Assembly: GCA_041740355.1 (NCBI GenBank)
Contig: JBGSMD010000030.1
Coordinates: 64,001 to 128,000 of the forward strand
Length of the DNA stretch: 64,000 nucleotides
From: Bdellovibrionota bacterium
GTDB lineage: Bacteria; Bdellovibrionota_C; UBA2361; CALJRW01
Direction of reading: 5' to 3'
Shown: one piece after another, positions 3,723 to 58,953 of the stretch
Position numbering within the stretch: position 1 is the first letter of the stretch
How the letters are laid out: each line of letters opens with the position of its first letter
Notes under the pieces: generated by a model
The model's input: only the letters and a program-made list of their open reading frames with translations
Told to the model about the DNA's origin: nothing
Database searches by the model: none
Program-made: the position numbers and the translations under genes

Positions 3723-3790
3723 TATAGTTATGACAAAAACTAATTTCCGAATATTTAAAAGTTAGTTTTGTGATTTTTGTCATAACCGTA
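3723..3790. repeat. Correia-like palindromic element (GTTATGAC subtype)
   Basis: GTTATGACAAAAA ... TTTTTGTCATAAC; close reverse complement of 58888-58953. Confidence 0.85.
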
Positions 3791-3813
3791 TGATTTTATA
3801 ACGCTTGCGGGGG

Positions 3814-3868
3814 ATAGTAAGCCCCAAAAAATAATTCCGAACGGAAATTACTTTTTGGACTTACTATA
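3814..3868. repeat. Correia-like palindromic element (AGTCCAA subtype)
   Basis: ATAGTAAGCCCCAAAAA ... TTTTTGGACTTACTATA; close reverse complement of 58835-58887. Confidence 0.85.
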
Positions 3869-3885
3869 TAATTTTAATTTAGGGA

Positions 3886-15922: not shown

Positions 15923-15975
15923 TATAGTTATTACAAAAAGTCATTCCCTATGGAACGAACTTTTTGGACTCTATA
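15923..15975. repeat. Correia-like palindromic element (hybrid ends)
   Basis: TATAGTTATTACAAAAAGT ... ACTTTTTGGACTCTATA; similar to 47771-47824. Confidence 0.75.
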
Positions 15976-15977
15976 TG

Positions 15978-40476: not shown

Positions 40477-41091
40477 TTAGGCAACTTTAAATTTACGACG
40501 GGAGACAACTCTTTCTAGAGATCTCAAATATAAATCAACTGGGGTATCACTTGCTAGTGCTGATTTTACTCGGCTGATGGCTAAAGATCCAATCAGAATG
40601 GCATCAACTATATCTTGGTGTTTCTTTAGGTTTTCAGAGGAAGAACTAAAACCAATTCGTTCTAAATTATTTTTTTGAGTTTTTTCAACTATTCCTACGG
40701 CCAGATCTTTAACGATGGTTCGTTCTAACTGTTTGCCCCGTAATCCCATAATTTCGTATTGAATTGTTCGGGGGTTAATTCTTCCAGGAACCTGAATATT
40801 TAATTCTCTAGCAAGAGCTTCAAAGATACACCTTACTTGTTCAACTTTAAAGGCAGCAGAGGGATCTTTCATTGAGGTGGGAGACTCACAGATTAAAATG
40901 TCATCTTTTGTTAATTTAAGATTTTTTAAAAGATCATTTACTTGAGTTTGTAAGTTGTCTAGGCGGATGGCTAGAGTATGAATGGAAGGAAGTGGTTTAA
41001 TTTTACCCACACCCAATAATCGTTCTGATTGGACATCAAATAGTGCCCAACCAGTACAAGTTATACTTGGATCAATAGCTACTAATCGCAA
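40477..41091 (-). CDS. divergent RuvC-like Holliday junction resolvase
   Basis: LVAIDPSITCTGWA, ICESP, INPRT, HQDIVDAILIG give the RuvC D-E-D-D pattern; no ruvAB nearby. Confidence 0.8.
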   Translation of the reverse strand: MRLVAIDPSITCTGWALFDVQSERLLGVGKIKPLPSIHTLAIRLDNLQTQVNDLLKNLKLTKDDILICESPTSMKDPSAAFKVEQVRCIFEALARELNIQVPGRINPRTIQYEIMGLRGKQLERTIVKDLAVGIVEKTQKNNLERIGFSSSSENLKKHQDIVDAILIGSLAISRVKSALASDTPVDLYLRSLERVVSRRKFKVA

Positions 41092-41142
41092 TTAAACCCT
41101 CTGGAAATAAAATTTGTGGAGGGCGAGCGTAATCTTGGTATT

Positions 41143-41172
41143 TTTATCAGACTTAGCCCTGGCGAAGTCTGA
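41143..41172 (-). repeat. 30-nt hairpin element, covariant copy
   Basis: Minus strand TCAGACTTCGCCAGGGCTAAGTCTGATAAA, aligned to the family consensus with compensatory stem changes. Confidence 0.7.
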
Positions 41173-41259
41173 AGCCAAGTTACGCCGTAGAAGACAAAAC
41201 CAATACTCACCGCCGAGTTGCGTCGGGTTTGGTAGTATTTTCTACGGCAAAACCTGTTT

Positions 41260-41319
41260 TCCACCTCCGCTTCCCCCTTCGCTAAAGCTGCGGAGGACAA
41301 GAAAGCTATGGCGGACAAG
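41260..41319 (+). repeat. two nested 30-nt hairpin elements
   Basis: Outer TCCACCTCCGCT|AAAGCTATGGCGGACAAG is interrupted by inner TCCCCCTTCGCTAAAGCTGCGGAGGACAAG (41272-41301). Confidence 0.9.
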
Positions 41320-41346
41320 GTAACAGGATTTTGCTCGTTCCCCCTT

Positions 41347-41375
41347 CTTTTCATTTTATTATCAAAAATGAAAAG
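41347..41375. other. AT-rich hairpin just downstream of recA
   Basis: CTTTTCATTTT-N7-AAAATGAAAAG; no clear U-tract on the minus strand. Confidence 0.5.
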
Positions 41376-41391
41376 CTGTGAGTATATATCC

Positions 41392-42489
41392 TTATGCTAC
41401 TTTTTTTGTAGTCTTTTTACCTTTGACATCATCTTCTTTTTCCAGGCCCGCAGGATTTTCAATTAGATTAAACGCTACTTCTTTTGCGCTGGGCTTGTCA
41501 TTACCAACATCTAAAGTTTCCAAAATTAATCTCTTCATCTCTTGAGTTAGTTCTGGATTCTGAGTCATGTATTCCTTAGCACCTTCACGTCCTTGTCCCA
41601 GTCTTTCTCCTTTATAAGAGTACCAAGCGCCAGACTTATCGATAATGCCTTGGGTCACACCAAGATCTAGAATCTCGCCAATTTGATTAATACCTTCATT
41701 GAAGATGATATCAAACTCAGCTTCACGGAATGGAGGAGCAACTTTATTTTTTACAACCTTCACACGAGTTCTGCTGCCACTAACAACATCATTCTCTTTA
41801 ATTGAAGCAATTCTTCGGATATCCATCCGAACACTACTGTAAAACTTCAGTGCATTTCCACCAGCTGTTGTTTCGGGCGATCCAAACATCACACCAATCT
41901 TCATTCGAATTTGGTTAATAAACAGAATTGAACAATTTGCTTTATGAGTATGAGCCGTTAACTTTCTTAGGCCTTTACTCATTAAGCGGGCTTGCATCCC
42001 AGGTTGCATGTCAGTCATTTCGCCATCAATTTCGGCACGTGGTGTTAAGGCTGCAACTGAGTCGATAATTACGAATTGCACTGCACCAGAAAGAATTAAT
42101 GCTTCACAAATTTCTAATGCTTGCTCTCCACAATCTGGTTGGCTGACTAATAATTTAGAAGTATCAACACCAAGTTTTTTAGCATATCCAACATCAAGTG
42201 CGTGTTCGGCATCAATAAATACTACTGTTCCACCAGTTTTTTGAACTTCAGCAGCGATGTGCAGTGCTAGCGTTGTTTTACCTGAGGATTCTGGTCCATA
42301 GATCTCACAGATTCTTCCTTTAGGAAGACCGCCTATTCCTAGGGCAATATCCAAACCCAAACTTCCTGTTGAGTAGGATTCAATTTTCTCATGTGGCTTA
42401 TCACCTAAGTTCATGATTGTGCCTTTGCCATATCTTTTTTCGAGTTGGCTAATAGCAGTCTCTAATTCTCTTGTTTTATTGTCTGTCAT
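41392..42489 (-). CDS. recA: recombinase RecA
   Basis: [55 protein letters not shown]. Confidence 0.99.
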
Positions 42490-42561
42490 GTTTATTTCCT
42501 TTTACAAATACTGCAAGTCATTTAGCGATTAGCTAAAGTCTTAAAATCTTTTTAAATATTA

Positions 42562-43188
42562 TTAATGTAATTCTCTCATTATTCCGATTACTCTTCCCTG
42601 AACTGTTACGCTATCTAAGGTAATTGGTTGTAGAGTAGGGTTAGCAGGTATTAGCATAACTTGCCCGCTCTTTAATCGACGATATTTTTTTAAAGTTGCT
42701 GTGCCATCATCTAAAAGTGCCACAACAATTTGTCCATTCTCTGCCGTATCTTGCTTACGAATTACAACAATGTCGCCGTCACAAATGTGCTCATCAATCA
42801 TTGACTCTCCGCTAACTTCCAAGCAATAAATTTCACCTTTGCCATTAATCATGCTTGGTGGAATATCAATCATTGTTTGTTGCTCGATGGCTTCAATCGG
42901 ACGACCGGCAGCAATTACTCCGGCAAGTGGAACTGCTGTTGGACTCATCTCTGGGGAATCACAATCAATTAACTCAATTGCTCCATCATCGCCTCTTTGG
43001 ATAAAGCCTTTGCTTTCTAGTCTTTCTAAGTGAAAGTGAGCAGTAGAAGGGGATTTTACTCCAATTGATGTGCAGATATCTTTAAGGGTTGGCGCAAAGC
43101 CATGCTCTGCCATGAAATTTCTTAAGAATTCCAATGTTTTACGTTGTACAGGGGCGAGACTACTAGTTTTATGGGAGTTAGTGCTCAT
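42562..43188 (-). CDS. lexA: SOS repressor LexA
   Basis: wHTH (APTLKDI...SPSTAHFHL), cleavage site IAAG.P, VSGESM, ATLK. Confidence 0.97.
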   Translation of the reverse strand: MSTNSHKTSSLAPVQRKTLEFLRNFMAEHGFAPTLKDICTSIGVKSPSTAHFHLERLESKGFIQRGDDGAIELIDCDSPEMSPTAVPLAGVIAAGRPIEAIEQQTMIDIPPSMINGKGEIYCLEVSGESMIDEHICDGDIVVIRKQDTAENGQIVVALLDDGTATLKKYRRLKSGQVMLIPANPTLQPITLDSVTVQGRVIGIMRELH

Positions 43189-43204
43189 AATATTTGAATA
43201 TCTT

Positions 43205-43252
43205 AAAATCCGTTAGGATTTTGTTATATCCAAAAATACTAGAAACCGTCAA
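43205..43252 (-). promoter_or_regulatory. sigma70-type lexA promoter with adjacent palindromic operator candidate
   Basis: Minus strand TTGACG-N18-TATAAC, immediately followed by AAAATCC-N4-GGATTTT (43205-43222). Confidence 0.6.
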
Positions 43253-43348
43253 GAGGTTATTTTAAATATTTACTCCTCAAGTATTTCCTTCTACTAATTA
43301 GGCAAGTAATTTCATGACCTTAGCTATTTCATTAGATTATTGTATTGA

Positions 43349-43726
43349 TTATTCCTCTCGCCAAATCATTTGAAAAAAATCTGGGTCAACAGATTTTGCT
43401 GGGGAAGAGACCGGCAAAATCTCGGGAAACTGGCTAAGAATCGCCGCGACACCTAATTGAATAGCGCATGGTCTCCCCCCCAAGTAAGGCAAATTATCCT
43501 TGGTTGTAAGAAATGTTTCATAATTAAATGTTTTAGCTTGGTAACTATCTAAATCAACTTGACCATTTACTAAAGTAACATCATGAATTGTTCGGCAGTG
43601 ACCATCGGTAACATTTATAACTAGTGTATGTCCTGGAGTCGCAGTAGATCTAAAAAGCGAAGTTTTTTTGCCTTCAATTGTTGCCTCATGAATGCGGCCG
43701 TCAGAATCTGGTGCTTTAAAAATCAT
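43349..43726 (-). CDS. hypothetical protein
   Basis: 125-aa ORF, ATG start. Confidence 0.5.
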   Translation of the reverse strand: MIFKAPDSDGRIHEATIEGKKTSLFRSTATPGHTLVINVTDGHCRTIHDVTLVNGQVDLDSYQAKTFNYETFLTTKDNLPYLGGRPCAIQLGVAAILSQFPEILPVSSPAKSVDPDFFQMIWREE

Positions 43727-43830
43727 AATATTTACTACTTATTAATAAGATTTATAACATGATATCAAAATTCAGATGCTAAGCAATTTTAAAAAAACAA
43801 AGCAGCTAAGTCTGGTTAAACTTCTTACCT

Positions 43831-44604
43831 TTGGCTATATTGCAAATGGTGTTAAAACTTAAAATTACTAAAATTTGTGTAAATAAGGCTTTTTTGCTCA
43901 ACCTTCAAAAGACAGTACTCTTAATTCTAATTGTCCTTAGCCTATCTTCCTGCTCAATGTTTTACACAACTGAGCGAAATTACATTTATCAAGTAAAGCT
44001 AGGAGATACACTCGCTAGTATCGCCGCAAATTTTCAGATGGATTTCCGAGAATTAGCCCGCTATAACAGGATTACGAACGCTAATCAGATTATTGTTGGC
44101 CAGGTTTTAGAAATACCACTAAGTGCCCAAGTTAATGTAACTAGAAGGTCTGCTAATCCAATTGAGTTTGCCAAACCGGCCAAGTTTTTTAGAAAAAAAG
44201 GTAAATCTAACCACAATCTTCTAGCTTGGCCAATCAGAACTAATAAAGCTCGTCTAAGCTCAGACTATGGCTGGCGTTGGGCGAAATTTCATGAAGGCTT
44301 AGACATTGCTGCAGCTACTGGCACACCAATCTATGCTGCGCATTCTGGTCGCGTAATGATGAGTGGATATCAAATAAGTGGTTATGGTAAAATGTTAATT
44401 ATTCAAAAAGATAATATGCTAACCGTTTATGCCCATAACAGCGTTAACTATGTTGATGTTGGTCAGAATGTTAGTGCTGGACAACACATTGGCGATGTTG
44501 GTGCGACAGGGAAAGCCACAGGGCCGCACTTACACTTCGAAGTACGTTTCCGTAATTCCGATCGTAAATTTGTATCAGTTGATCCTGGAGAGTATCTGCC
44601 TTAG
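43831..44604 (+). CDS. LysM + peptidase M23 lipoprotein (NlpD-like)
   Basis: Lipobox LSSC; YQVKLGDTLASIA; HEGLD, YAHN, ATGPHLHFE. True start is probably slightly downstream. Confidence 0.92.
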   Translation: MAILQMVLKLKITKICVNKAFLLNLQKTVLLILIVLSLSSCSMFYTTERNYIYQVKLGDTLASIAANFQMDFRELARYNRITNANQIIVGQVLEIPLSAQVNVTRRSANPIEFAKPAKFFRKKGKSNHNLLAWPIRTNKARLSSDYGWRWAKFHEGLDIAAATGTPIYAAHSGRVMMSGYQISGYGKMLIIQKDNMLTVYAHNSVNYVDVGQNVSAGQHIGDVGATGKATGPHLHFEVRFRNSDRKFVSVDPGEYLP

Positions 44605-44622
44605 AATAAAGGAATTAATTAA

Positions 44623-44696
44623 GTCCTCGTAGCTCAGCTGGATAGAGCACTAGTTTCCTAAACTGGGGGTCGGATGTTCGAATCATCTCGGGGACA
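44623..44696 (+). tRNA. tRNA-Arg(CCT)
   Basis: Acceptor GTCCTCG/CGGGGAC, D arm GCTC..GAGC, anticodon loop TTCCTAA, T loop TTCGAAT; CCA not encoded. Confidence 0.95.
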
Positions 44697-44734
44697 CTTT
44701 GACTTAAAGCGGAGATACTGTTTGGAAAAGTTCA

Positions 44735-44750
44735 CTTGTCGCGCCGAAGC
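44735..44750 (-). repeat. partial 30-nt hairpin element
   Basis: Minus strand GCTTCGGCGCGACAAG matches the 3' half of the family. Confidence 0.55.
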
Positions 44751-44893
44751 GACTTCAGATAGCTTGTAAAAATTTAAAGCTAGTTAGCAAAGATCGAGGT
44801 TTACAAGTCAACGTTTAATCGAAAAACTTAAACTTTATAATTAATAACTGACTTACTAAACATACCAAGTGAAAGTTAGATTTATTACCTAAT

Positions 44894-45925
44894 ATGCAAT
44901 ATTTAAAACTAAAATATTTATTGAGTTCCTTTTTCATATTTTTATCTTTAATAAATGATTCGTTTGCTGAGACCTTTCCAGAAATGAAGCTAATACCTGC
45001 TGGAGAATTCCAAATTGGTTCGCAGTCTGATGGTTCAATGCCAAATGAAAAACCTGTGTATCCAGTAAAGATAGCTAGTTTTTTGATGGACGAAACTCCG
45101 GTAACAAATCTATAATTTGAAAAATTTGTCCAAGCTACAAAGTTTCTTACGACTGCCCAACAGCCTTTAGATTGGGAAGAGCTAAAAAAACAAGTTCATC
45201 CAGAGACACCTAAACCTCCTGAGGATATTCTTAAACCAGGGTCATTAGTATTTGTTCCGCCTGACCATGCTGTTGATGTGGGTCACTTAGAGAATTGGTG
45301 CTTCTTGGAAAAATCCGCAAGGACCAAATAGTAATGTCAACGACAAACAAGATTATCCAGTTACTCAGGTTGGGATGATGCCAAAGTATATTGCGCTTGG
45401 GCTAAAAAACGCTTACCGACTGAAGTGGAGTGGGAATATGCGGCACGCGGTGGAAAATCGAGTGCTCGTTATTTGTGGGGTAATGAGTTTAAACCTAATG
45501 GAAAATGGATGGCAAATACATTCACCGGAACTTTTCCATTTAACAATACAATAGAAGATGGCTTTGAAAAAACTTCACCAGTAAAAGCTTTTCCTGCAAA
45601 CAATTATGGACTTTACGATATGGCTGGAAATGTCTGGCAGTGGACGGCAGATCTTTACAGTGTAAATTCCCACGTTGAGGCAGCCAGCGAAATTAAAAGC
45701 AAACAGTTGTCTTGTCATAGTAATCCACAAGGCCCTAAAGAAACATTCAATCCTATCCGCGCAGTTCCAAATTCCCCAGAGCGAGTAATCAAAGGGGGAT
45801 CTTTTTTATGTCATGTAAGTTACTGCGAAAGTTATCGGCCTTCTGCGCGTCGCGGCACACCACCTGATACAAGTTCAGAGCATGTGGGATTCAGATGTGC
45901 CAAAGATAGCAAATCAGAAATCTAA
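44894..45925 (+). pseudogene. formylglycine-generating enzyme (sulfatase-modifying factor) pseudogene
   Basis: FGE motifs spread over three frames (IPAGEFQIG, DETPVTN*F, GASWKNPQGP, WDDA..YC.W..KRLPTE.EWEYAARGG, RVIKGGSFLCHVSYC); in-frame TAA at 45113 and frameshifts near 45298 and 45370. Confidence 0.9.
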
Positions 45926-45981
45926 ATTTGTTTCTCTAGTATCTTTGATAAAAATTCTTGATTAGGGCATTTTTTAAAAAT

Positions 45982-46129
45982 AGTAATAACAAAAAATAAT
46001 TTACTGCCTGCCTAGCCGAAGCTTCAGCGAAGGCTGGTTAGTAAATTGCATAGCTAAAAACAACATTAATAGTGAGTTCAAGCAAAATCGTTAATCATTT
46101 AAAGTAATTTATTTATTGGACTCACTATA
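45982..46129. repeat. left copy of long inverted repeat (composite; contains 30-nt element 46008-46037 and Correia-like palindrome 46069-46129)
   Basis: 45982-46047 equals the reverse complement of 49987-50052 at 65/66; 46046-46129 resembles the reverse complement of 49829-49911. Confidence 0.9.
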
Positions 46130-46311
46130 TCTTACTATCTCCTAAAAATATGCAATTTATCCTAAGTAAAAATCTGCTTGTTAATTGCAAATTTTTGAAG
46201 TAATTCAAAGTATAATGTAATTGTCTTTTGCCATTAAAGATCAAGCAAAAGTCTTATTCACAAACAATTTGATCTAAACGGATCTCAAATTTAAAAATAA
46301 GAGGAAACAAA

Positions 46312-47715
46312 ATGAATTTCAAAGACACTAAATTCCATTTCTTCCGAGAAGTTATCGCAGCTTCAATTTACGGAATATTGGCTTTAACATCAATTTCTAA
46401 TTTAGTTATCGCCGAAGAAGACACTTCTGCTGTGCAGTCTGATCAAGTGCAAATGGAAACAAGCCAAACTCAAGGCATTCTTCCTCTTCCAGATTATACA
46501 GGAGACATATGGAAAAGAAGTTTTCTAACTGGTGATTGGGGTGGAACTCGCACTGCTTGGGCGGAAAATGGAATCCAAATGGATTTGAATTATACTCAGA
46601 CTTTACAATCGGTGGAAGATGGAGGGCGTAATGAAAACTCAGCTTATAACGGTACGCTCGACTACAATGCAATTTTCGATTTACAAAAAATGGGAGTTTT
46701 GCCTGGAGCAATTGTTAAAGTTCGTGCTGAAACAAATTATGGTGAATCTGCAAATCGTAATTCAGGTGCGATCCTTCCAGTTAACACTGATGGGTTTTTT
46801 CCACTGACTGAACCACTTGATCAAGATATTCCGATAACTCTCACCAATTTAACATATATCCAGTTTTTATCAGAACAGTTTGCTCTAATGCTTGGTAAGT
46901 TTGACACACTCGATGCCGATACTAATGAGTTTGCTGGAGGACGAGGCACAAGTCAGTTCCAAAATTCAAACTTCGTTTTTAACTCTGCGGTCGCGCTTAC
47001 ATCTCCATATAGTACTTTAGGAACAGGGGCAATCTGGATGCCCTCTAAGAACATAACGGTCAGTAGTACAGTTTATAATACTAACGATTCTTCACGATCT
47101 ACGGGCTTCGATGATGTTGGTGATGGAGGATCTTGGGCAACTGAACTTCAAGCTAAGTATCGCTTGAAAAATTTACCGGGGGGGCAGAACGTCGGCTACA
47201 TTTATTCATTTAACAATGAGTTTTTTGAGCTTAATGGAAGATTCTCATTCCAACCAGGACAAGGTATTGTTGCTCCAAGAACTGATAAAACTTGGTCTGC
47301 GTACTGGAGTGGTTGGCAGTATCTTTATGTAGAAAATCCAAATGATGCACCAATTGATACAACTAATGGAAAAGTTGATCAGCAGGGCTTTGGATTATTC
47401 TCACGTTTTGGATTTGCGGATGATGATGTTAATCCAGTTGATTGGTCTTTAAGTGGTGGTCTAGGAGGAAAAGGTATCATCCCTAGTCGCGATGATGATA
47501 TGTTAGGGCTTGGGTACTTCTATACAAGCATCCAGAATGATAGATTTAGCGGAATTGATCTGGTCGCAGATTATGTAGATGGCTTAGAAGCTTTTTATAG
47601 CTTTGCTATTACGCCAGCTGTTAATCTGACTTTTAATGTGCAGAGTATTAAATCTGTCCAAAATAATCTAGATGAAGCAACAATACTCGGGTTGCGCTTA
47701 GGAATGCGTTTCTAA
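46312..47715 (+). CDS. carbohydrate-selective porin, OprB family
   Basis: LTGDWGGTRT.W.E.GI, GKFD..D, F.NSNF, EAFY, C-terminal GLRLGMRF; RBS AGAGGA. Confidence 0.9.
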   Translation: MNFKDTKFHFFREVIAASIYGILALTSISNLVIAEEDTSAVQSDQVQMETSQTQGILPLPDYTGDIWKRSFLTGDWGGTRTAWAENGIQMDLNYTQTLQSVEDGGRNENSAYNGTLDYNAIFDLQKMGVLPGAIVKVRAETNYGESANRNSGAILPVNTDGFFPLTEPLDQDIPITLTNLTYIQFLSEQFALMLGKFDTLDADTNEFAGGRGTSQFQNSNFVFNSAVALTSPYSTLGTGAIWMPSKNITVSSTVYNTNDSSRSTGFDDVGDGGSWATELQAKYRLKNLPGGQNVGYIYSFNNEFFELNGRFSFQPGQGIVAPRTDKTWSAYWSGWQYLYVENPNDAPIDTTNGKVDQQGFGLFSRFGFADDDVNPVDWSLSGGLGGKGIIPSRDDDMLGLGYFYTSIQNDRFSGIDLVADYVDGLEAFYSFAITPAVNLTFNVQSIKSVQNNLDEATILGLRLGMRF

Positions 47716-47770
47716 TTTGTAATCCATCGCTCAGTTATTTTGTAGATTATTGATTGCTGATAGTGGTAGA

Positions 47771-47824
47771 TATAGTTATGACAAAAAGTAATTCCCTAAG
47801 GAAATTAATTTTGGAATCTCTATA
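47771..47824. repeat. Correia-like palindromic element abutting a start codon
   Basis: TATAGTTATGACAAAAAGTAATTCCCTAAGGAAATTAATTTTGGAATCTCTATA, ending 6 bp before the ATG at 47831. Confidence 0.8.
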
Positions 47825-47830
47825 TTTACC

Positions 47831-48907
47831 ATGACATTTAGGCACTTCTTTATTTTATTATTAGTTTCTAGCTCATTATTAGCAGAAGAAAAATTCCAAG
47901 TTGGAAATATTTTGCCTTTATCAGGCGCGTACCATGAGTATGCCCATGAATGTCAGGAAGGTTTCAAAATGGCAGAACGGGAATCTTCCGATCTGTTAAA
48001 GCAAAAGATCCAATTTTTAGTAGAAGACGATCAATCGACCCCCAAGGGGGCTGTGAATGCACTTCAAAAATTATTAATTAATAAAAATTTATTAGCAGTT
48101 AGCCTTTTTAGCAGTTCCCCCGTGTTAGCTAATCAATCTAACCTTGTTACAAATCGTTTGCCTATGTTAGGACTTTCAGGACACCCCGATTTTTTGCCAA
48201 ACAATCCTTATGCAGTAAGTAACTGGCAAGAAACGTCGACAGAAGCGAAAGCTTATTTTAATTGGTTAACGGAAAATAATATTAAATCACTGGGAATCGT
48301 CACTTTTGAAAATGATTATCCTTTAGCCGTTAGAAAATACTTAAAGGAGTGGAGTGAGAAATCTGGGATTTCAATTTCCTTTGATGAAGAAGTTGTTGAT
48401 AGTGTCGATTTCAGGGCACTAATAGCAAGAATCAAGAAAAATCCCCCGGAAGTTTTTATGGTTAACTTGCTAGCCGGAACATTTGTTCCCTTTGTTCGTC
48501 AATTAAGAGAACAAGGCTATCAGGGGAAAATTTTATCTCTGAATGCTAATGGACGAAATGAGTATTTAAAGTCAATTGGAATAGAAGCTTCCAATGGTAT
48601 AATTTTTTTCGGACCAAACTATCATCAAGAATATTTTTTAAGTAGGCTTGCTCCAAATGTTTTGGAGGAAATGCCTCTGTCCTATGTTTACACTTGTTAT
48701 CTTGGTATGAAACTAATTACCACTAAGTTGGAAAAACGCTTAGAATCAAACACTCTAAGCAAAGAAAATTTTCTTCAGGATTTAATTTCGGCAGAATCTT
48801 TTATGATCGACGATCAAAAAATAGGCATTAAGAATCGCCGGATAAATTTTGATTTTGCAAAAATGGTGGCGCAAGAGGGGAGAATAGTCCATGATAGTGT
48901 TGATTAA
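47831..48907 (+). CDS. ABC transporter substrate-binding protein (LivJ/LivK-like), orphan
   Basis: Signal peptide, VGNILPLSG, EDDQSTPK, DFRALIARIK; paralog of 27590-28630. Confidence 0.85.
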   Translation: MTFRHFFILLLVSSSLLAEEKFQVGNILPLSGAYHEYAHECQEGFKMAERESSDLLKQKIQFLVEDDQSTPKGAVNALQKLLINKNLLAVSLFSSSPVLANQSNLVTNRLPMLGLSGHPDFLPNNPYAVSNWQETSTEAKAYFNWLTENNIKSLGIVTFENDYPLAVRKYLKEWSEKSGISISFDEEVVDSVDFRALIARIKKNPPEVFMVNLLAGTFVPFVRQLREQGYQGKILSLNANGRNEYLKSIGIEASNGIIFFGPNYHQEYFLSRLAPNVLEEMPLSYVYTCYLGMKLITTKLEKRLESNTLSKENFLQDLISAESFMIDDQKIGIKNRRINFDFAKMVAQEGRIVHDSVD

Positions 48908-49014
48908 TTTATTAACTTGAGTTCTACATTAGATTCGTAACGAGATATGCAAAGTGATTGAATTTCACAAGCTTAAATTATTAAAACTTTAGACACACTT
49001 TATAAGAATTAAAT

Positions 49015-49554
49015 ATGTTAAAAAAAGGCATTTGTTTTTCATTGTTTCTTCTCGGATTATTTTATTTTAATCCAGTAAGTGCCGATCTTAATAATGGAGA
49101 TTGTTCTCTTGAATGGCCAAAAAATTGGGAAGTAACATCAATGCCTCAATTTAGAGATGATCATGATAACTCCTTTGGTGGAAAACGATTTCGGGCGATG
49201 TTAAAAGACAATGAGGATCTAAAAGTTGCTCTGGAATTTACCTGTATTCCTTTAGCTAATAGAAAACTAAGTTTAGAAGGAGAGTTTGAAGCGGCTTCAA
49301 AAGCAATTGAGGCAGGATATCAAAAGATGGGACTGGAGGCGCAGTTTAGTCCAGCAACAAAAAATCCCCTAAACCAATCATCCACTCTGGAAACAGAAAT
49401 TACTGTCAGTGCTCCAGAAATAACTCTTAAACAAGCCTTGTTAATTGCGATTGATTCTCAATATCTTTATTCGCTTAGCTACACAGGTGTAGAATCTGAA
49501 TTTCAAAATAATCTTAAGGCCTATCAGGAAGCTCGGGCTAGTTTAGCTAAGTAG
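49015..49554 (+). CDS. exported PsbP/DcrB-like (DUF4946-like) protein
   Basis: Signal peptide, SLEWPKNWE, YLYSLSYTG, C-terminal helix. Confidence 0.55.
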   Translation: MLKKGICFSLFLLGLFYFNPVSADLNNGDCSLEWPKNWEVTSMPQFRDDHDNSFGGKRFRAMLKDNEDLKVALEFTCIPLANRKLSLEGEFEAASKAIEAGYQKMGLEAQFSPATKNPLNQSSTLETEITVSAPEITLKQALLIAIDSQYLYSLSYTGVESEFQNNLKAYQEARASLAK

Positions 49555-49828
49555 TCATATTTTTAATTAACCTTCATTTTAAGATGTGAGTCTTAATTAC
49601 ATAGCCTAAAGCCTTAAAAAATGAGGATATTTTAACTGTCTCGATAATACAGATTTAATCAAATGAGTAGATCGGCAGGCCCTAATTTTTTTCTTGATTA
49701 TTCAATTATTATTTAGTAAATAATTTGCCCAAATATACTTGGTAAAGTTTGTCCATGTTTGAAACAGCCTCTTACGAGGCAGCTTTGCAAAACAAGCAAT
49801 TCTTGTTTTAAGGCTGACTGGCATATTC

Positions 49829-50052
49829 TATAGTTAGTCCATAAAATAATTACTTTAAAAAACCAAGGATTTTGCTTGGACTCACTATTTATGTTGTTTT
49901 TAGCTATGCAAACTTGAATACTTGTCCGCCATAGCTTTAGCGAAGGTGGGAATCCAAGATTTGCATTAGCCGTAATGACTCTGTTTAATTTACTAACCAG
50001 CCTTCGCTGAAGCTTCGGCTAGGCAGGCAGTAAATTATTTTTTGTCATTACT
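49829..50052. repeat. right copy of long inverted repeat (Correia-like palindrome 49829-49888 plus a branched element with 30-nt insertions at 49921-49950 and 49997-50026)
   Basis: Reverse-complement match to 45982-46129 with an extra ~75-bp segment (49912-49986). Confidence 0.9.
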
Positions 50053-50091
50053 TTTATATGTTTTAGTGTCCATTTAAATTTGGAGATTCCA

Positions 50092-51048
50092 ATGCACTTG
50101 CGGTCTTATTGTAAGTTATTATTCCTTTCTTTTCTAATCTCCCTAAATTCTTTTGCTCAACCATCAAATCAAGAGATTCGTAGTGAATTCGATCAACGTG
50201 TTAATGCAGGTGTGAATGCGGTTACATTATTTAATTCAGATATGTCTGTATCAGCAGGTAATTATAAATTTGATGATACAGAATCAGATGCTAAATTTGA
50301 TTTATTTAAATTGCCCTATCAACATAAATTTGAGGCCCTTGATAATGGAATGAAGCCTGAGTTAAATTTGCTAGTTGCAAATTCTAAGATTACTAGTTCA
50401 CCAGAAATGCAACCTTCCGCCATTGGGATTAATGATTTCTCCGTAGTTGAAACCAATAGTTTTCAAGCTGGAGTTGGGTTGGCAATTCCAATTTTGGATC
50501 GACTGTCAATTATCCCAAGGGGGTCAGCAACTTATAGTCACTTAAAACGTAGCTATGATTTTAATAATAGCTTTAGCCAGACAAATCTTCAGCCCTACGA
50601 CAGAGATGCCTATAATACGAGTATCGATATCATGACCTACACGCCTAGTTTAGAGCTCCGCTACGAAACTAACGAAGAAAATTCCGGCAACTATGCAGTT
50701 TATACCCGATACAGCCAGTTATATAATCATTCTTTCGCCACGAAAAGTAGATTTGCTGATGTTGACTCTGATTCTGGTTTATTACAAAGTGGTCTGGAGT
50801 ATAATCAAAAATTAGCAAATAAAGTTTTAGATCGAGAAGTTTACTTTAAGCCTTACTTTGTTCAAACTAATTTGTATGGAGAAGCTAGGGAAGCACTAGA
50901 TGTTAGCTATTTTCATGAACTTGGTTTTAGTTTTAATATGATGGAAAAAAATCCTGAATTTATTTTAAGCCAGTATAATATCGGATTGTCTTATACTTAT
51001 GGAGAAGAATTTGATGGTATTAAATTTGAATTAGGATTTAAGCTTTAA
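50092..51048 (+). CDS. outer-membrane beta-barrel (solitary autotransporter barrel-like)
   Basis: Signal peptide, alternating beta-strand pattern, ends FELGFKL; GGAGA before ATG 50092. Confidence 0.65.
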   Translation: MHLRSYCKLLFLSFLISLNSFAQPSNQEIRSEFDQRVNAGVNAVTLFNSDMSVSAGNYKFDDTESDAKFDLFKLPYQHKFEALDNGMKPELNLLVANSKITSSPEMQPSAIGINDFSVVETNSFQAGVGLAIPILDRLSIIPRGSATYSHLKRSYDFNNSFSQTNLQPYDRDAYNTSIDIMTYTPSLELRYETNEENSGNYAVYTRYSQLYNHSFATKSRFADVDSDSGLLQSGLEYNQKLANKVLDREVYFKPYFVQTNLYGEAREALDVSYFHELGFSFNMMEKNPEFILSQYNIGLSYTYGEEFDGIKFELGFKL

Positions 51049-51111
51049 ATTTACAATTTTATATTTGATGGCGACTCTTTTGATTAGCCAACTTATTGTT
51101 TTTACTAAATT

Positions 51112-53505
51112 ATGAATATAAAAATAAAACAAACTTTGCCTGTTATTTTCATGAGTATAATTATACTCGTATCTTGTTCACCTTTAGAGAAATCCTCTAA
51201 TCCGCAACATAAGGTAGATCAAAGTTTTGATCGCAGCATATTGCCAATCAAGGAACCAAAAGCACCAGTTTACACCGAACTTGATGCTCGAAATGCTACA
51301 CCACCAGCACGTTTTGAAGTTACTGCTCCTGATAAAGCACCAAACATTGTTGTTGTCTTGATAGATGATATTGGATTTGGACATTCCAGTGCATTTGGCG
51401 GTCCAATTAACATGCCAACACTTGATCGTTTAGCAGGTAACGGATTGAAATATAATCGCTTTCATACGACGGCTCTTTGTTCTCCAACACGCACAGCGCT
51501 ACTTACTGGTTATAATCATCATTCCAATAATGCCGGTGCAATTATGGAGGTAGCAACTGCTTTTCCTGGGAATACCGGCATTAGACCGCAATCAATTACT
51601 CCCGTTGCTAACGTTTTAAAAATGAACGGCTATAATACAGCTGCTTTTGGAAAGTATCATGAAACTCCACCTTGGGAGGGATCTGTTTCTGGTTCATATG
51701 ATCGCTGGCCAACAGGTTCTGGTTTTGAAAAATTTTATGGGTTTATTGGTGGTGAGACTAATCAGTTTCACCCAATGTTGTATGATGGGACTACTCGGGT
51801 TTATCCTGATGTTGAGAATAAGGATTATCATTTCACTAATGACATGACCGATCAGGCTCTTACTTGGATGAATACTCAGCAGTCTCTTACTCCGAATAAA
51901 CCTTTTTATATGTATTTTGCAACTGGTGCTACTCATGCTCCACACCATGCACCAAAGAGCTACATTGATAAGTATAAAGGAAAATTTGCTGGTGGATGGG
52001 ATCGTTTGCGAGAAGAAACCTTAGTTAGACAGAAAGCCTTAGGTGTTGTTCCGCAAGATACTGTTTTAGCAGCTAAGCCCGAGGCCATTAAAGACTGGGA
52101 CAATTTAACGGCTGATGAAAAAAGACTCTTTGAAAAACAAATGGAAGTCTTTGCTGGATTTGCTGAACATACTGATGCGCAAGTCGGACGACTAGTTGCT
52201 GCCTTAGAGGAACGAGGTGAGTTAGATAACACACTTTTTTTCTATCTAGTAGGAGACAATGGTTCTAGCGCTGAGGGAGGTATGATTGGCATGTATAATG
52301 AAAATACATATTTTAACAGTGTGACAGAAACATTAGATATGCAACTTAAAGTTATTGATGAACTAGGATCGGAGAAAGCCTATAATCACTTTGCAGCTGG
52401 ATGGGCAGTTGCTGGAAACACGCCATTTACTTGGACCAAACAAGTTGCCTCTAATTTTGGCGGAACTCGCAATGGTTTAGTTGTTCATTGGCCAGCTGGA
52501 ATCAAATCTAAGGGTGAAGTTCGTTCACAATTTCATCATGTGATTGATGTAGCTCCAACTATTTATGATGCTGTTGGCGTTCCGGCACCAGAGATGGTTA
52601 ATGGTGTGAAGCAAGCTCCGATTGAAGGAGTTACTATGGCTTATTCTTTTGATGAAGCTAGCGCCACAGATACTAGAAAGACTCAATATTTTGAGATGGT
52701 GGGTAACCGTGCAATTTATCATGATGGTTGGTTTGCAGGAACAATTCACAAGGCTCCTTGGGAAGCACAGCCAAGAGGTCCTTTGCTTGATGATGTTTGG
52801 CAACTATACGACGTAAATGCTGATTTTAGTTTGTCAAATGATTTAGCGAAGGAGAATCCAACGATGCTCAAAAAACTTCAAGCTAAATTCATGGATGAAG
52901 CAGAGAAATATCATGTCTTGCCGATTGACGATCGTTCAATTGAGCGATTTGATCCAACAATTGCTGGGCGTCCTGACTTAATGAATGGTCGTACCAAATT
53001 AGTTCTTTACCCAGGTGCTAAAGGTATTCCTGAGAATGCCTTCATCAACATTAAAAATAGGTCTCTATCACTTACGGCAGAAGTAGATGTTAAAGATTCA
53101 GCTTCTGGTGTTCTAATATGCCAAGGTGGAGATTTCGGTGGATGGTCGTTGTATATGAAAAATGGCCGACCTCATTATACATATAACTGGGTTGGCTTAG
53201 AGTCTTACACAATTGCAGCTGATCGAGCAGTTCCATCAGGCAAACATACAGTCAAATTCGATTTTGACTATGATGGTGGTGGTCGTGGGGCAGGTGGTCT
53301 GGGAACTATTTACATTGATGGTGTTAAAGCCGGAGCTGGAAGAATTGCTAAGACAAATGCTAATACTTTTGGAATTGATGAGTCAGCAGATGTTGGAGTT
53401 GATGAAAACACATCCGTTGTACCGGCCTATGGATTTAGAGAGAAAAATAAATTCACAGGAGAGATTGCTAAAGTTACAGTGGAAACATTCCCTGCTAAAC
53501 CATAG
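51112..53505 (+). CDS. arylsulfatase (Cys-type, lipoprotein) with C-terminal LamG-like domain
   Basis: Lipobox LVSC; PNIVVVLIDD, HTTALCSPTRTALLTG, GKYH, GDNG. Confidence 0.96.
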   Translation: MNIKIKQTLPVIFMSIIILVSCSPLEKSSNPQHKVDQSFDRSILPIKEPKAPVYTELDARNATPPARFEVTAPDKAPNIVVVLIDDIGFGHSSAFGGPINMPTLDRLAGNGLKYNRFHTTALCSPTRTALLTGYNHHSNNAGAIMEVATAFPGNTGIRPQSITPVANVLKMNGYNTAAFGKYHETPPWEGSVSGSYDRWPTGSGFEKFYGFIGGETNQFHPMLYDGTTRVYPDVENKDYHFTNDMTDQALTWMNTQQSLTPNKPFYMYFATGATHAPHHAPKSYIDKYKGKFAGGWDRLREETLVRQKALGVVPQDTVLAAKPEAIKDWDNLTADEKRLFEKQMEVFAGFAEHTDAQVGRLVAALEERGELDNTLFFYLVGDNGSSAEGGMIGMYNENTYFNSVTETLDMQLKVIDELGSEKAYNHFAAGWAVAGNTPFTWTKQVASNFGGTRNGLVVHWPAGIKSKGEVRSQFHHVIDVAPTIYDAVGVPAPEMVNGVKQAPIEGVTMAYSFDEASATDTRKTQYFEMVGNRAIYHDGWFAGTIHKAPWEAQPRGPLLDDVWQLYDVNADFSLSNDLAKENPTMLKKLQAKFMDEAEKYHVLPIDDRSIERFDPTIAGRPDLMNGRTKLVLYPGAKGIPENAFINIKNRSLSLTAEVDVKDSASGVLICQGGDFGGWSLYMKNGRPHYTYNWVGLESYTIAADRAVPSGKHTVKFDFDYDGGGRGAGGLGTIYIDGVKAGAGRIAKTNANTFGIDESADVGVDENTSVVPAYGFREKNKFTGEIAKVTVETFPAKP

Positions 53506-53532
53506 TTAAGGTCACTTAATTATAAGTAAGAT

Positions 53533-53569
53533 TTGCGGTACTCAAGACTCCTTGTCTTGAGTACCGCAA
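53533..53569. terminator. perfect 16-bp hairpin between convergent genes
   Basis: TTGCGGTACTCAAGAC-TCCTT-GTCTTGAGTACCGCAA. Confidence 0.75.
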
Positions 53570-53630
53570 TCTAAAAATCTTGTTTCCTAAATTTATTCTA
53601 CTTAGAAGCTAATACTTCAAGTCAAAATAA

Positions 53631-54005
53631 TTATTTTTCAAACCAAACTTTATTTTGAGACTCTGGGTCACCATTATAATTTACTAGGATTTCCTCACCT
53701 TTTTTGATTGCTTTAATTGCTTTGAAAGTAATTGTCTTGGAAGTATAGTTTGTTTTATAACGAGCATTAGGTTGATAGGAGTGGTTATAAATTGAGCCGT
53801 AACCTAGTGCAATTGCACTCCCCTGATCCTTCCAAGAGAAATAATAGTTATATAATTCAGTACCATCAATTTGCTTAGTGTCATTCTGGTTTAGTATGAT
53901 AACGGGGCAGACTTCAATAACTTCTCCAATCTCAATTTTCTCTAAGGCAAAAACTCCTTTCTTGTGAAGCTTACTTTTTTTGATGGTGATTTTCATTCCT
54001 ACCAT
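53631..54005 (-). CDS. stand-alone SET domain protein
   Basis: GVFA, IEVCPV, LGYGSIYNHS..PNA, IKKGEEILVNY. Confidence 0.93.
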   Translation of the reverse strand: MVGMKITIKKSKLHKKGVFALEKIEIGEVIEVCPVIILNQNDTKQIDGTELYNYYFSWKDQGSAIALGYGSIYNHSYQPNARYKTNYTSKTITFKAIKAIKKGEEILVNYNGDPESQNKVWFEK

Positions 54006-54055
54006 GATACTCGATTTATTTTTGTATTACTTATACATTATTTTGAAATAATTTT

Positions 54056-55162
54056 TTACTCTTTAATGATTAAATAGCGTTCCGAAAATTCATTATTAGC
54101 AACAGCGTTAATCCAAGTATTTCCCCCGTATGACTTAATAATTGCTTTTTTAAATTCCTCTGATCCTGCAACTCCTTCGGCTCTAATGCTTGTGAATACG
54201 TCTTCCACAGTAGTTAAGTTTTTACTTAACATCATTTCCTTTATTGCCTGGGCAGTAAGAGCTTTGGATAATAGATAATTAGGGTTGCTAGAGGTAAGAA
54301 TTCTACTTGCTTCAGCTATTAGGAGTTCGCCATCGCAGACATGGTAAGAACAATAATCAGAGAAAGCTTCTGATAAATGAAGGACTGATAATTTATCGGT
54401 AATTTTACCTGTCCATAATGCAACCGGAACTTTTTGTCTGAAAAAAGCATTTGCTAATTCATTGACAATTGTTTGAGTTTTCATGGCTTCGAATAAAACC
54501 GGGTCGTTTTTTGCACGAAGCTTGATTGCCTCTTCAAAGATTAAGATTTTTTCCACTTTGCCGGTTTCCGCTGTGATGGTTTGCCCAAAAAATAAGGCAT
54601 CATTTTTTAAAGGCCAGAACTTAGTTTTTCTTACATCGGGAGTAAGAGCCTTTTCTACCATCAAAACAGGAACAGCATCTAAATCCTTGAGTCCTAGTTT
54701 GCTAAAAAGCTGAGTTTGCCGATCGACATTGGCGGAGGTTCCGGAAAAGAATCGAGTATTTATAGCAAACTCATCATCTTTGACTCTAATCAAGACATGC
54801 AACAATCCCAAGCTATGCTTAGCTAAAACTTGGTTTACTTGATATAAGTATTCAGAGATAGCAGTTTGGTTTTGGCCAGCTGGTAGTTTCGGGCAAGCAA
54901 ATGCCTGAAGCTCAGGTTGAATTTCAGTTAAACAACGAATGTATTCCTTCTCGGCAAGCTCAAAAGAATAACCCCGCTTATTTTTAAATACTTCTGATTG
55001 TCTTTCATAGAAATCTAATATTTTTGTCTGTAAAGCTACTTCTTTAGCTTTTAAATCCAATACATTTTTAGTTTTAATTTGTTCTTCAGCCCTAATCTTT
55101 GGCAGGCTAGCTCCAATTGTGGCCAGAGACAGATTAGTTAAAAAGTTACGGCGCGATATCAT
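54056..55162 (-). CDS. Tat-exported hypothetical protein
   Basis: MISRRNFL twin-arginine signal; NELAN...EAFSD segment. Confidence 0.7.
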   Translation of the reverse strand: MISRRNFLTNLSLATIGASLPKIRAEEQIKTKNVLDLKAKEVALQTKILDFYERQSEVFKNKRGYSFELAEKEYIRCLTEIQPELQAFACPKLPAGQNQTAISEYLYQVNQVLAKHSLGLLHVLIRVKDDEFAINTRFFSGTSANVDRQTQLFSKLGLKDLDAVPVLMVEKALTPDVRKTKFWPLKNDALFFGQTITAETGKVEKILIFEEAIKLRAKNDPVLFEAMKTQTIVNELANAFFRQKVPVALWTGKITDKLSVLHLSEAFSDYCSYHVCDGELLIAEASRILTSSNPNYLLSKALTAQAIKEMMLSKNLTTVEDVFTSIRAEGVAGSEEFKKAIIKSYGGNTWINAVANNEFSERYLIIKE

Positions 55163-55307
55163 TATAAAATTTATTAATATAATCCAATTCAGGGAGAATT
55201 ATTTTAACAGATTAAAGTCCTTAATCAATTATTCTTTAGATGGAAGAATTAAACATCCGGATCTCGTTTCAATAGACTTTCTCAACTCCAAGTAGTAAAA
55301 CTAAGGC

Positions 55308-56672
55308 ATGACCCATTCTATCTTCTATGACTTAGAAACCAGCGATTTAAATTTCATCGGGCAAATCCTGAACTTTAGTTTTATTGTAGTTGATGCTGAA
55401 TGGAAGGTGATTGATGAGTTTAGTTCTGAAATAAAGATTACTCGATTACAGCTTCCAAGAGCGAGGGCAATTGCCGCTAATCGGATTAATGTTATCGAAC
55501 ACCAAAAAAAAGCTAAATATACCGAAGCCAGTGCCATGGCTAGAATAGCAGAGTTCCTGCAAGATTTTGTTGTGAATTGTGGTTCAAGTTCCGGGCAATT
55601 AATTGGATTTAATTCAGCTAATTTTGATTTGCCTTATTTACGAACGAGTTTAATTAGAAATGGACATAGTCCATATTTCAAAGTTCATAATCGTGATTTG
55701 TTTATCCTTGCTCAAAAACTTTGGATTACGAATGAAGATTTTCGTAAGAAAATTTTAACATATGCCGAAGCCAATTCTTTAACTGCAAATTTAAAATTAG
55801 AGACTCTTTGCAAAGCGCATAATTTACTAGAAGGTAAACAGTTGCATGAAAGTAGAGACGATGTTTTGCTAACAATTGAATTGGCTAAGAATTTACTTAA
55901 TCTTTATGGAGCAGATGTTCGAAGTTTTGAGCCTTATGAAGGACGAACGTTACATCGCAAACCTCGTGGTTCTGTTTATCAAGTAAAAACAGGGATTCAT
56001 AAGTTAGAACCTGTTGTTAGCCACTACACTCTACTCCAAGCTGAGAATAAGAGTGCCTTATGGGTTGATTTAGATCACCTAAAGAAATGTATGGAAGGAG
56101 GGAAAGAATTAAAGTCAGCCGTTAGGTGGATTAAATTTGAAGCTAAGATTTTTATTACTGATGGAGTTGAAGTTTTAGATCCGGAGTACGTTGCACTAGC
56201 AAATCAGGCACAGGAAGAATTTAAAGATTTACAAATTGATAATTTTTTTGAAAAAACTACCTGTGACATAGAACAATTTATTTACCGAATTCCATTTGAT
56301 AGCTTCAGGTTATTGGCTAAATATATGCAAGATCCCAAAGGTTCAGGGCAGTTAAGTAATGACGAAAAAGATTTGGTGAAGCGTTATCGCTTAGCTAATT
56401 ATGAATTAGGCTCTGGGGATGATGCTAAGATTTATTCAGCTCTAAAGGAATATGCTGAATATCGCTATGGTGGACAAGCACAGCTAGCTAATACCATTAA
56501 TACTGATTTACAAGGCAAAGAAAATCCGAAAGATTTTCACCCAACAATAATTGATCTAATTGCCGAAATAGATCAAGTCGCGAATGAAGATCCTGATAGT
56601 GCCAGTTTAATGCAAAGCCTTGGTGAGTTTTATCGAAAGTCAGAAATTTATAACCTACTAAAAGCAGATTAA
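55308..56672 (+). CDS. DEDDh 3'-5' exonuclease, exonuclease I (SbcB)-like
   Basis: IFYDLETSD, GFNSANFDLPYLR, LKLETL, HESRDDV; length similar to ExoI. Confidence 0.8.
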   Translation: MTHSIFYDLETSDLNFIGQILNFSFIVVDAEWKVIDEFSSEIKITRLQLPRARAIAANRINVIEHQKKAKYTEASAMARIAEFLQDFVVNCGSSSGQLIGFNSANFDLPYLRTSLIRNGHSPYFKVHNRDLFILAQKLWITNEDFRKKILTYAEANSLTANLKLETLCKAHNLLEGKQLHESRDDVLLTIELAKNLLNLYGADVRSFEPYEGRTLHRKPRGSVYQVKTGIHKLEPVVSHYTLLQAENKSALWVDLDHLKKCMEGGKELKSAVRWIKFEAKIFITDGVEVLDPEYVALANQAQEEFKDLQIDNFFEKTTCDIEQFIYRIPFDSFRLLAKYMQDPKGSGQLSNDEKDLVKRYRLANYELGSGDDAKIYSALKEYAEYRYGGQAQLANTINTDLQGKENPKDFHPTIIDLIAEIDQVANEDPDSASLMQSLGEFYRKSEIYNLLKAD

Positions 56673-56717
56673 GATTAGTCTGATCTTAATCCAGTTATGG
56701 TAAACAAATGCTAGCAA

Positions 56718-56777
56718 TCCGCCTTTGCCAAGGCTTCCACCTTCGCTGAAGCTTCGGCAGACAAGTCGGCGCGATAG
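56718..56777 (+). repeat. two nested 30-nt hairpin elements
   Basis: Outer TCCGCCTTTGCCAAGGCT|TCGGCGCGATAG is interrupted by inner TCCACCTTCGCTGAAGCTTCGGCAGACAAG (56736-56765). Confidence 0.88.
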
Positions 56778-56812
56778 TTTTCTTTGGTTTTTTAAAAAAC
56801 CAAAGAAAACTA
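56775..56812. repeat. perfect 38-bp palindrome containing the antiporter stop codon
   Basis: TAGTTTTCTTTGGTTTTTT|AAAAAACCAAAGAAAACTA. Confidence 0.92.
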
Positions 56813-58834: not shown

Positions 58835-58953
58835 ATAGTGAGTCCAATAAGTAGTTTCCGCAGGGAATTACTTTTTGAGGTTTACTTTAGTTATGACAAA
58901 AAATCACAAAACTAACTTTCCAATATTCGGAAGTTACTTTTGTCATAACTATA
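58835..58953. repeat. tandem pair of Correia-like palindromic elements
   Basis: ATAGTGAGTCCAA...(58835-58887) followed by TAGTTATGACAAAA...TTTTGTCATAACTATA (58888-58953); inverted counterpart of 3723-3868. Confidence 0.88.

Follow-up and report, generated by a model that had tools for sequence, protein, structure and literature searches.

Copies of a 30-nt hairpin element in the window

We analysed a stretch of 64,000 nt (the window) from a Bdellovibrionota bacterium (GCA_041740355.1, contig JBGSMD010000030.1, positions 64,001-128,000, forward strand), in which a 30-nt hairpin element had been recognised. The initial annotation listed eight full copies and one partial copy, each of which we found at its position. 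Relative to the consensus of that annotation, the copies at 41143-41172, 46008-46037 and 49921-49950 and the partial copy at 44735-44750 lie on the minus strand. With a weight matrix derived from related loci, five intact copies of the window scored 30-39, while the divergent copy at 41143-41172 reached 18.5. The same matrix detected 177 copies in the window and the loci described below, and none in block-shuffled sequence.

The divergent copy occupies the loop of a bulged host hairpin, and so does the plus-strand pair at 41260-41319, whose outer copy (41260-71 and 41302-19) is interrupted after position 12, in its own loop and behind GCT, by an inner plus-strand copy (41272-41301). As is directly visible in the sequence, the host region 41122-41337 consists of two related bulged hairpin units that are inverted to each other and carry one insertion apiece. 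For the canonical copy at 49921-49950, the host is likewise a bulged hairpin, with the copy in its loop. The copy at 46008-46037, at the apex of an AT-rich hairpin, is identical to the plus-strand copy at 49997-50026. Since both reside within a larger inverted duplication (45979-46116 versus 49841-50055), they were counted as one event, the second being borne by the duplicated host unit. At 56718-56777 (plus strand) a further outer copy (56718-35 and 56766-77), which abuts a terminator-like palindrome and is not at an apex, contains an inner plus-strand copy (56736-56765) after position 18, again behind GCT. Thus, the window comprises five independent non-nested sites and two self-insertions, all of them intergenic.

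The family across genomes and its filled and empty sites

GTDB genomes were scanned with a 19-nt core of the element. At least 122 loci were obtained, from at least 22 named phylum-level groups plus unnamed ones; the family counts given below refer to the matches listed. As the pattern fixed part of the element core, conservation of that part is not an independent test. At positions outside the pattern, conservation spanned positions 1-30 and did not extend beyond. For the analysis we used 128 hits with full flanks; L054 was dropped because it overlaps L053, and about six hits that are probably chance coding matches (L010, L027, L088, L097, L111 and L058) were kept in. The stem pairs 1:26, 3:24 and 12:15 were complementary in 97, 117 and 121 of the 128 hits (shuffled means 53, 87 and 66), in agreement with the compensatory changes reported initially. 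The element is a covarying 26-nt hairpin plus a 4-nt tail, with fixed ends. The tail was CAGG in 20, CAAG in 19, CAAA in nine and TAAA in seven of the 128 hits and otherwise varied. A target duplication was absent in 114 of 128 hits, as in swapped controls, and GCT preceded 13 of 128 sites (background 1.8%). With its asymmetric ends and the lack of a duplication, the element does not have the terminal inverted repeats and target duplication of a miniature inverted-repeat transposable element (MITE). No match was found in Rfam or in plasmids, and phages gave chance matches only.

Insertion of the element into itself was apparent at both nested sites of the window. Cutting out 41272-41301 or 56736-56765 restored an outer copy of 30 nt, and GCT preceded both inner copies, just as had been claimed. 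Outside the window, self-insertions were found after position 12 (L008 and L050) and position 18 (L078), i.e. in the same registers. The nesting rate exceeded that of swapped controls modestly (2/128 versus 7/1269 at score 20), and the argument rests on the recurring registers, not on the rate. Slippage was rejected as the origin of the nested pairs, as 23 and 21 of 30 positions mismatched at a period of 30; it would moreover require two separate duplications that meet at one junction. Inner and outer copies differed at five sites in one pair and at ten in the 56718 pair, whose members carry different loop classes, both of them common (57 and 19 of 128).

Evidence for movement also came from orthologous genes. 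The L038 copy lies within a mercuric reductase gene of Patescibacteria, whose product is 92% identical to an empty homologue. While 75 of 120 homologues have 467 amino acids, 17 of 120, scattered over the tree, exhibited an exact 10-residue family insert at residue 127/128, and one more contained a 20-residue insert that can be read as one copy nested in another, with the split after codon 6. The inserted peptides vary between alleles as family variants do. A tree was calculated with 55 rows from 116 near full-length proteins (18 filled, 37 empty), from which the insert columns had been dropped and 11 homologues with other inserts left out. On this tree the trait underwent 11 changes, at least nine of them forced, and a single clade was rejected (p-AU 8e-54). 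The scattered insert thus reflects repeated independent gain or precise loss, two processes that the counts cannot separate; part of the scatter could stem from allele conversion. The same loop also contains short inserts of 8, 16 and 17 residues that are unrelated to the element. Among the homologues (P0121-P0240), residues 124-130 and 332-337 show recurrent other inserts of 7, 8, 10, 16, 17 and 18 residues, which suggests further small mobile palindrome families at shared hot spots.

In-frame copies also interrupt a queuine transglycosylase and an Xaa-Pro peptidase, the latter corresponding to a 10-residue gap relative to two solved structures. More in-frame candidates are present among the loci. 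For the L052 synthetase, a search of solved structures was empty at the threshold set. Four of the six reading frames through the element are almost never stopped. The suggestion that a length of 30 nt would allow in-frame insertion was hence borne out in several genes, and the genome-wide search and the comparison of filled and empty sites proposed together with it yielded in-gene copies and empty orthologues, respectively.

These data also bear on the view that the unit is a functional RNA or terminator hairpin recurring by convergence, with nesting by slippage. The window copies are intergenic, several of them between or after genes, and some scan hits are chance coding matches, as this view would have it. 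It is scarcely credible all the same, given exact 10-residue inserts missing from 92%-identical orthologues, nested pairs which are not period-30 tandems and which in the 56718 pair combine different loop classes, and the lack of an Rfam match. Filled and empty orthologues have largely refuted it already. We conclude that the 30-nt unit is genuine, occurs widely and is demonstrably mobile; it is a variant of the short palindromic repeats. The exact ends and the lack of a target duplication uphold the description as a minimal mobile element. Of the wording "actively spreading", what remains is an insertion recent enough to separate 92%-identical proteins; present-day activity does not follow from it.

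Insertion sites and the search for a transposase

The copies had been described as targeted by structure, most of them sitting at the apex of an inverted repeat. In the window this was confirmed: the junction hairpins at four independent sites had energies of -4.8/-5.6, -7.6, -10.0 and -10.8 kcal/mol, whereas only 3.2% of 250 random intergenic junctions reached -4 kcal/mol. Hairpin loops were thus the target at four of five independent sites, far over the intergenic background. The exception was the outer copy of 56718-56777, whose junction hairpin had -0.2 kcal/mol and which adjoins the foot of a perfect palindrome (about 56775-56812). Three of the four hosts appear to be members of a single family of bulged hairpins, in which the element has inserted in either orientation. 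The remaining host is a repeat with uninterrupted relatives at 3810, 15923, 47771 and 58835; it hosts the 46008 copy as a larger plus-strand unit (45979-46130), and its second copy on the minus strand (49830-50055) includes two copies of the element.

Across the phyla, the preference for an apex nearly disappeared. Junction energies of -8 or below were found at 11/128 sites and in 22/502 swapped flanks (p 0.05); at -2 to -6 the sites showed no surplus. Stems that matched exactly, taken at p≤0.01, occurred in 5/128 versus 5/253 cases, and folding z scores of -2 or below at 1/39 intergenic sites versus 38/345 controls, a test that left out the six likely chance hits and all short loci. Family-wide targeting of apices was therefore rejected, even though clear cases exist among the loci listed (L019, L098, L025, L049 and L102); sites within genes are not hairpins. 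Because the preference nearly vanishes across phyla, and because the inner copy at 56736, a position-18 self-insertion, interrupts the 3' arm of the outer copy and not the loop, structure is a local or partial determinant of insertion, beside a weak GCT bias.

Several host repeats were noted in their own right. A family of AT-rich hairpin units of about 55 nt with conserved ends, which are single, paired or nested, hosts the 46008 and 49997 copies; its members lie at 3723-3871, 15923-15976, 47771-47823, 58835-58953, 45979-46130 and 49830-50055, and it may be a MITE-like element. In the family of bulged hairpins (41122-41337 and 49895-49975), every known instance has a copy of the element in its loop, and neither the window nor the loci contained an empty one. 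A GC-rich hairpin repeat with C-run and G-run arms has copies within it or directly ahead of it at L001, L011, L098, L104, L108 and L109, some at the apex and others a short fixed distance 5' of the repeat.

The initial annotation ascribed mobility to HUH chemistry. On this account an HUH tyrosine transposase (RAYT or TnpA) acts in trans on the element, a REP-like substrate, and insertion is targeted to hairpins. A hairpin with a 4-nt tail and the lack of a target duplication fit well, as does the rejoining of single-stranded DNA, which HUH chemistry performs by nature. Some GTAG and CGTC repeats do lie within palindromes (PMC3733652). The element resembles REP/REPIN-RAYT systems as a short non-autonomous palindrome composed of a hairpin and four unpaired bases, and REPs, too, occur in frame within genes (PMC3733652). 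The conserved tag, however, is missing: GTAG preceded the top strand in 0/128 hits, no CGTC tag was conserved, the tail varies, and the reverse strand begins with CCTG, CTTG, TTTG or TTTA. Differences between orthologues consist of single 30-nt units instead of inverted doublets, apex preference is not general, and the element is near-identical across many phyla, while REPINs are described as almost only vertically inherited (10.1101/2021.07.10.451892). Among 33 open reading frames (ORFs) with an HUH motif in 1.3 Mb of loci, the only Y1_Tnp was located 1.7 kb from a copy and was unflanked; a RAYT or Y1-HUH gene flanked by the hairpins was not found among the loci listed. The HUH assignment could thus not be maintained, the gene linked to the element being of the GIY-YIG type (see below), and we regard movement by an HUH enzyme as improbable.

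Other known systems were likewise only partly similar. Derivatives of IS200/IS605 share with the element the lack of a target duplication and a subterminal hairpin, but they have two ends, whereas the element is one hairpin of 30 nt in total and shows no strict tetra- or pentanucleotide 5' of the insertion. Rickettsia palindromic elements and CGTC-tagged REPs are comparable in that they insert in frame into proteins and have no known dedicated transposase (PMC3733652). They differ in sequence, and four diagnostic peptides of the element are missing from the table of intragenic elements in PMC3733652, a comparison made with this table; the element may overlap with a minor family of that paper. 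Literature searches, among them ones for literal core motifs, which occurred in 0 papers, gave no description of the element or its tRNA-linked nuclease, subscription journals and bioRxiv supplements being outside the scope.

Within the window, no transposase was identified among 52 ORFs. Adjacent to the first copy is a RuvC-like ORF (40477-41091), which was set aside as a mobiliser, as it follows lexA-recA and is best read as a junction resolvase; Pfam and NCBIfam gave no hit for it, and most of the Atlas clusters closest to it are viral. Elsewhere in the window, a gene similar to formylglycine-generating enzymes (44894-45925) is split into several ORFs and is probably a pseudogene or an assembly error, and the first large ORF contains 60-nt tandem repeats (304-497) coding for a Pro/Thr linker.

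A tRNA-linked GIY-YIG nuclease as candidate mobiliser

A six-frame search of about 1.3 Mb of loci revealed four small GIY-YIG genes, two of which were read across a break. Each of the four has a tRNA gene upstream and begins 5-19 nt past a family hairpin on the reverse strand, the hairpin loop being fixed or variable; stretches no more than 150 nt from a copy make up only 2.6% of the long loci. Copies at most 200 nt downstream of a tRNA gene were frequent (13/134 versus a background of 0.7%), four of them beginning at the tRNA 3' end. Variants starting with CCA (L051, L056 and L110) overlap the tRNA 3' end and carry a compensating change in the other arm; the 46008/49997 copy of the window belongs to this variant. 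In the window, a tRNA-Arg(CCT) gene (44623-44697, plus strand) is situated 37 nt upstream of the partial copy at 44735-44750, which has the orientation seen in the tRNA-hairpin-nuclease cassettes and is possibly the remains of one; a nuclease remnant was looked for beside it and not found.

The nuclease has 79 amino acids and is SLX1-like, with the catalytic Tyr, Tyr, Arg, His and Glu conserved. Its predicted fold (pLDDT 95) matched best to HIGLE and Slx1, and the nearest solved relatives are UPF0213 and Slx1/HIGLE. NCBIfam holds no model for it, and no close relative was found in plasmids and phages; four more distant single-domain GIY-YIG genes of plasmids had no copy nearby. The linkage was also visible in protein records. 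Translations of the element were present in 16 of 24 over-called N-terminal extensions of homologues and in 0/60 control pieces. Of 110 much longer homologues, 57 contained hairpin-end peptides and 51 tRNA read-through (shuffles about 6-7), these patterns having been picked after inspection of the homologues. In L009 (9994-10030) the 3' arm of the hairpin provides a GGAGG-like ribosome-binding site 5 nt before the start codon, so that the element may also control translation of the nuclease gene.

The closest parallel is the NTS/SRM-Ssn system (cd10448), which also combines an oriented hairpin repeat of about 30 nt with an adjacent small single-domain GIY-YIG gene (PMC11893778), an adjacency found here at 4/4 genes. 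SsnA, a related single-domain enzyme, cleaves single-stranded DNA upstream of its own hairpin repeat, at a distance of a few nt, and the authors propose a domesticated mobile element (PMC11893778). The two systems nevertheless differ in several respects. The SRM motif fitted 0/128 copies, none in the window and none near the four genes; the present protein has 79 amino acids (SsnA 94) and is Slx1/HIGLE-like, a sister clade according to the authors' reply to the reviewers (PMC11893778); its gene follows a tRNA and a 5' hairpin; and the element has filled and empty sites and in-frame inserts, while NTS are rarely located in genes (2%; PMC11893778).

We give an even chance to the following model. 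The unit would be a non-autonomous 30-nt single-stranded DNA element, mobilised in trans by the 79-residue SLX1-like nuclease encoded on tRNA-hairpin-nuclease cassettes and joined by the host into single-strand breaks. The working strand would be the reverse of the one annotated initially, with the tail first and then the hairpin, in the order 4-nt tail, stem, purine-purine mismatches, 2-bp stem and a mini-loop of the CTTG/TTTA type. The nuclease is predicted to bind the single-stranded element and to make two cuts, one about 4 nt 5' of the stem and one at its 3' foot. The tail end would be set by the cut distance, as in the geometry of SsnA, which may explain why the tail is not strictly conserved. 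Host ligation or repair would then insert the freed 30-mer at single-strand breaks; in this genome, such breaks would occur mostly at other hairpins. Survival would favour intergenic hairpin loops and, because 30 nt keeps the frame, surface loops of proteins.

Several points weigh against this model. Characterised GIY-YIG enzymes hydrolyse DNA and are not known to form a covalent intermediate, which leaves no known catalyst for the joining step. With standard DNA energies, the copies fold only weakly (-1.7 to -7.9 kcal/mol); such folding overlooks loops of the CTTG/TTTA type and sheared G-A pairs, which are stable in DNA. The linkage is drawn from four DNA loci and protein read-through, a peptide test set beforehand did not discriminate among the long homologues (14/111 versus 15/109), and most of 120 longer homologues list the GIY-YIG domain only, with no recurring fusion to a ligase or polymerase. 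The statement that the window encodes no mobilising enzyme proved correct for the GIY-YIG gene as well. Finally, the hairpin ahead of the gene could merely be a ribosome-binding or autoregulatory site.

In a different explanation, the element is the recognition site of the nuclease, serving restriction of incoming single-stranded DNA or autoregulation, and copies spread by homing-like recombination or break repair. SsnA lowers transformation at NTS and, in the account given of it, is not shown to move them (PMC11893778), and the nine or more changes in one orientation at a single mercuric reductase loop would also fit patchwise allele conversion. Yet copies lie in unrelated genes and repeats with exact ends and no flanking homology, and the inserted peptides differ between alleles like family variants. 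We therefore consider this explanation rather unlikely, though it deserves more credit than movement by an HUH enzyme.

For mobilisation by the SLX1-like nuclease, a wider version can be proposed only tentatively and at clearly less than an even chance: a hydrolytic nuclease of 79 residues would act as a transposase, spread across phyla on tRNA-linked cassettes and place 10-residue inserts in proteomes, and the other short palindromic inserts of that same protein loop in mercuric reductase would be further element families with nucleases of their own. In either version, the candidate mobiliser belongs to a different enzyme class than the one proposed initially.

These results bear on the question of how short palindromic repeats that lack a RAYT (CGTC REPs, Rickettsia elements and NTS) multiply. 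In the present case, filled and empty sites of such a repeat are paired with a candidate enzyme of 79 residues and with predicted cut positions; the question therefore becomes testable with oligonucleotides. The pairing gives the sparsely characterised bacterial SLX1-like nucleases a candidate substrate, and the element accounts for 10-residue inserts that recur in proteins of uncultured bacteria, and for false extensions at the N terminus of such proteins. Should the enzyme support insertion, this would represent a new chemistry of single-stranded DNA editing and a novel route by which very short DNA elements spread, the 30-nt unit being among the smallest mobile DNAs.

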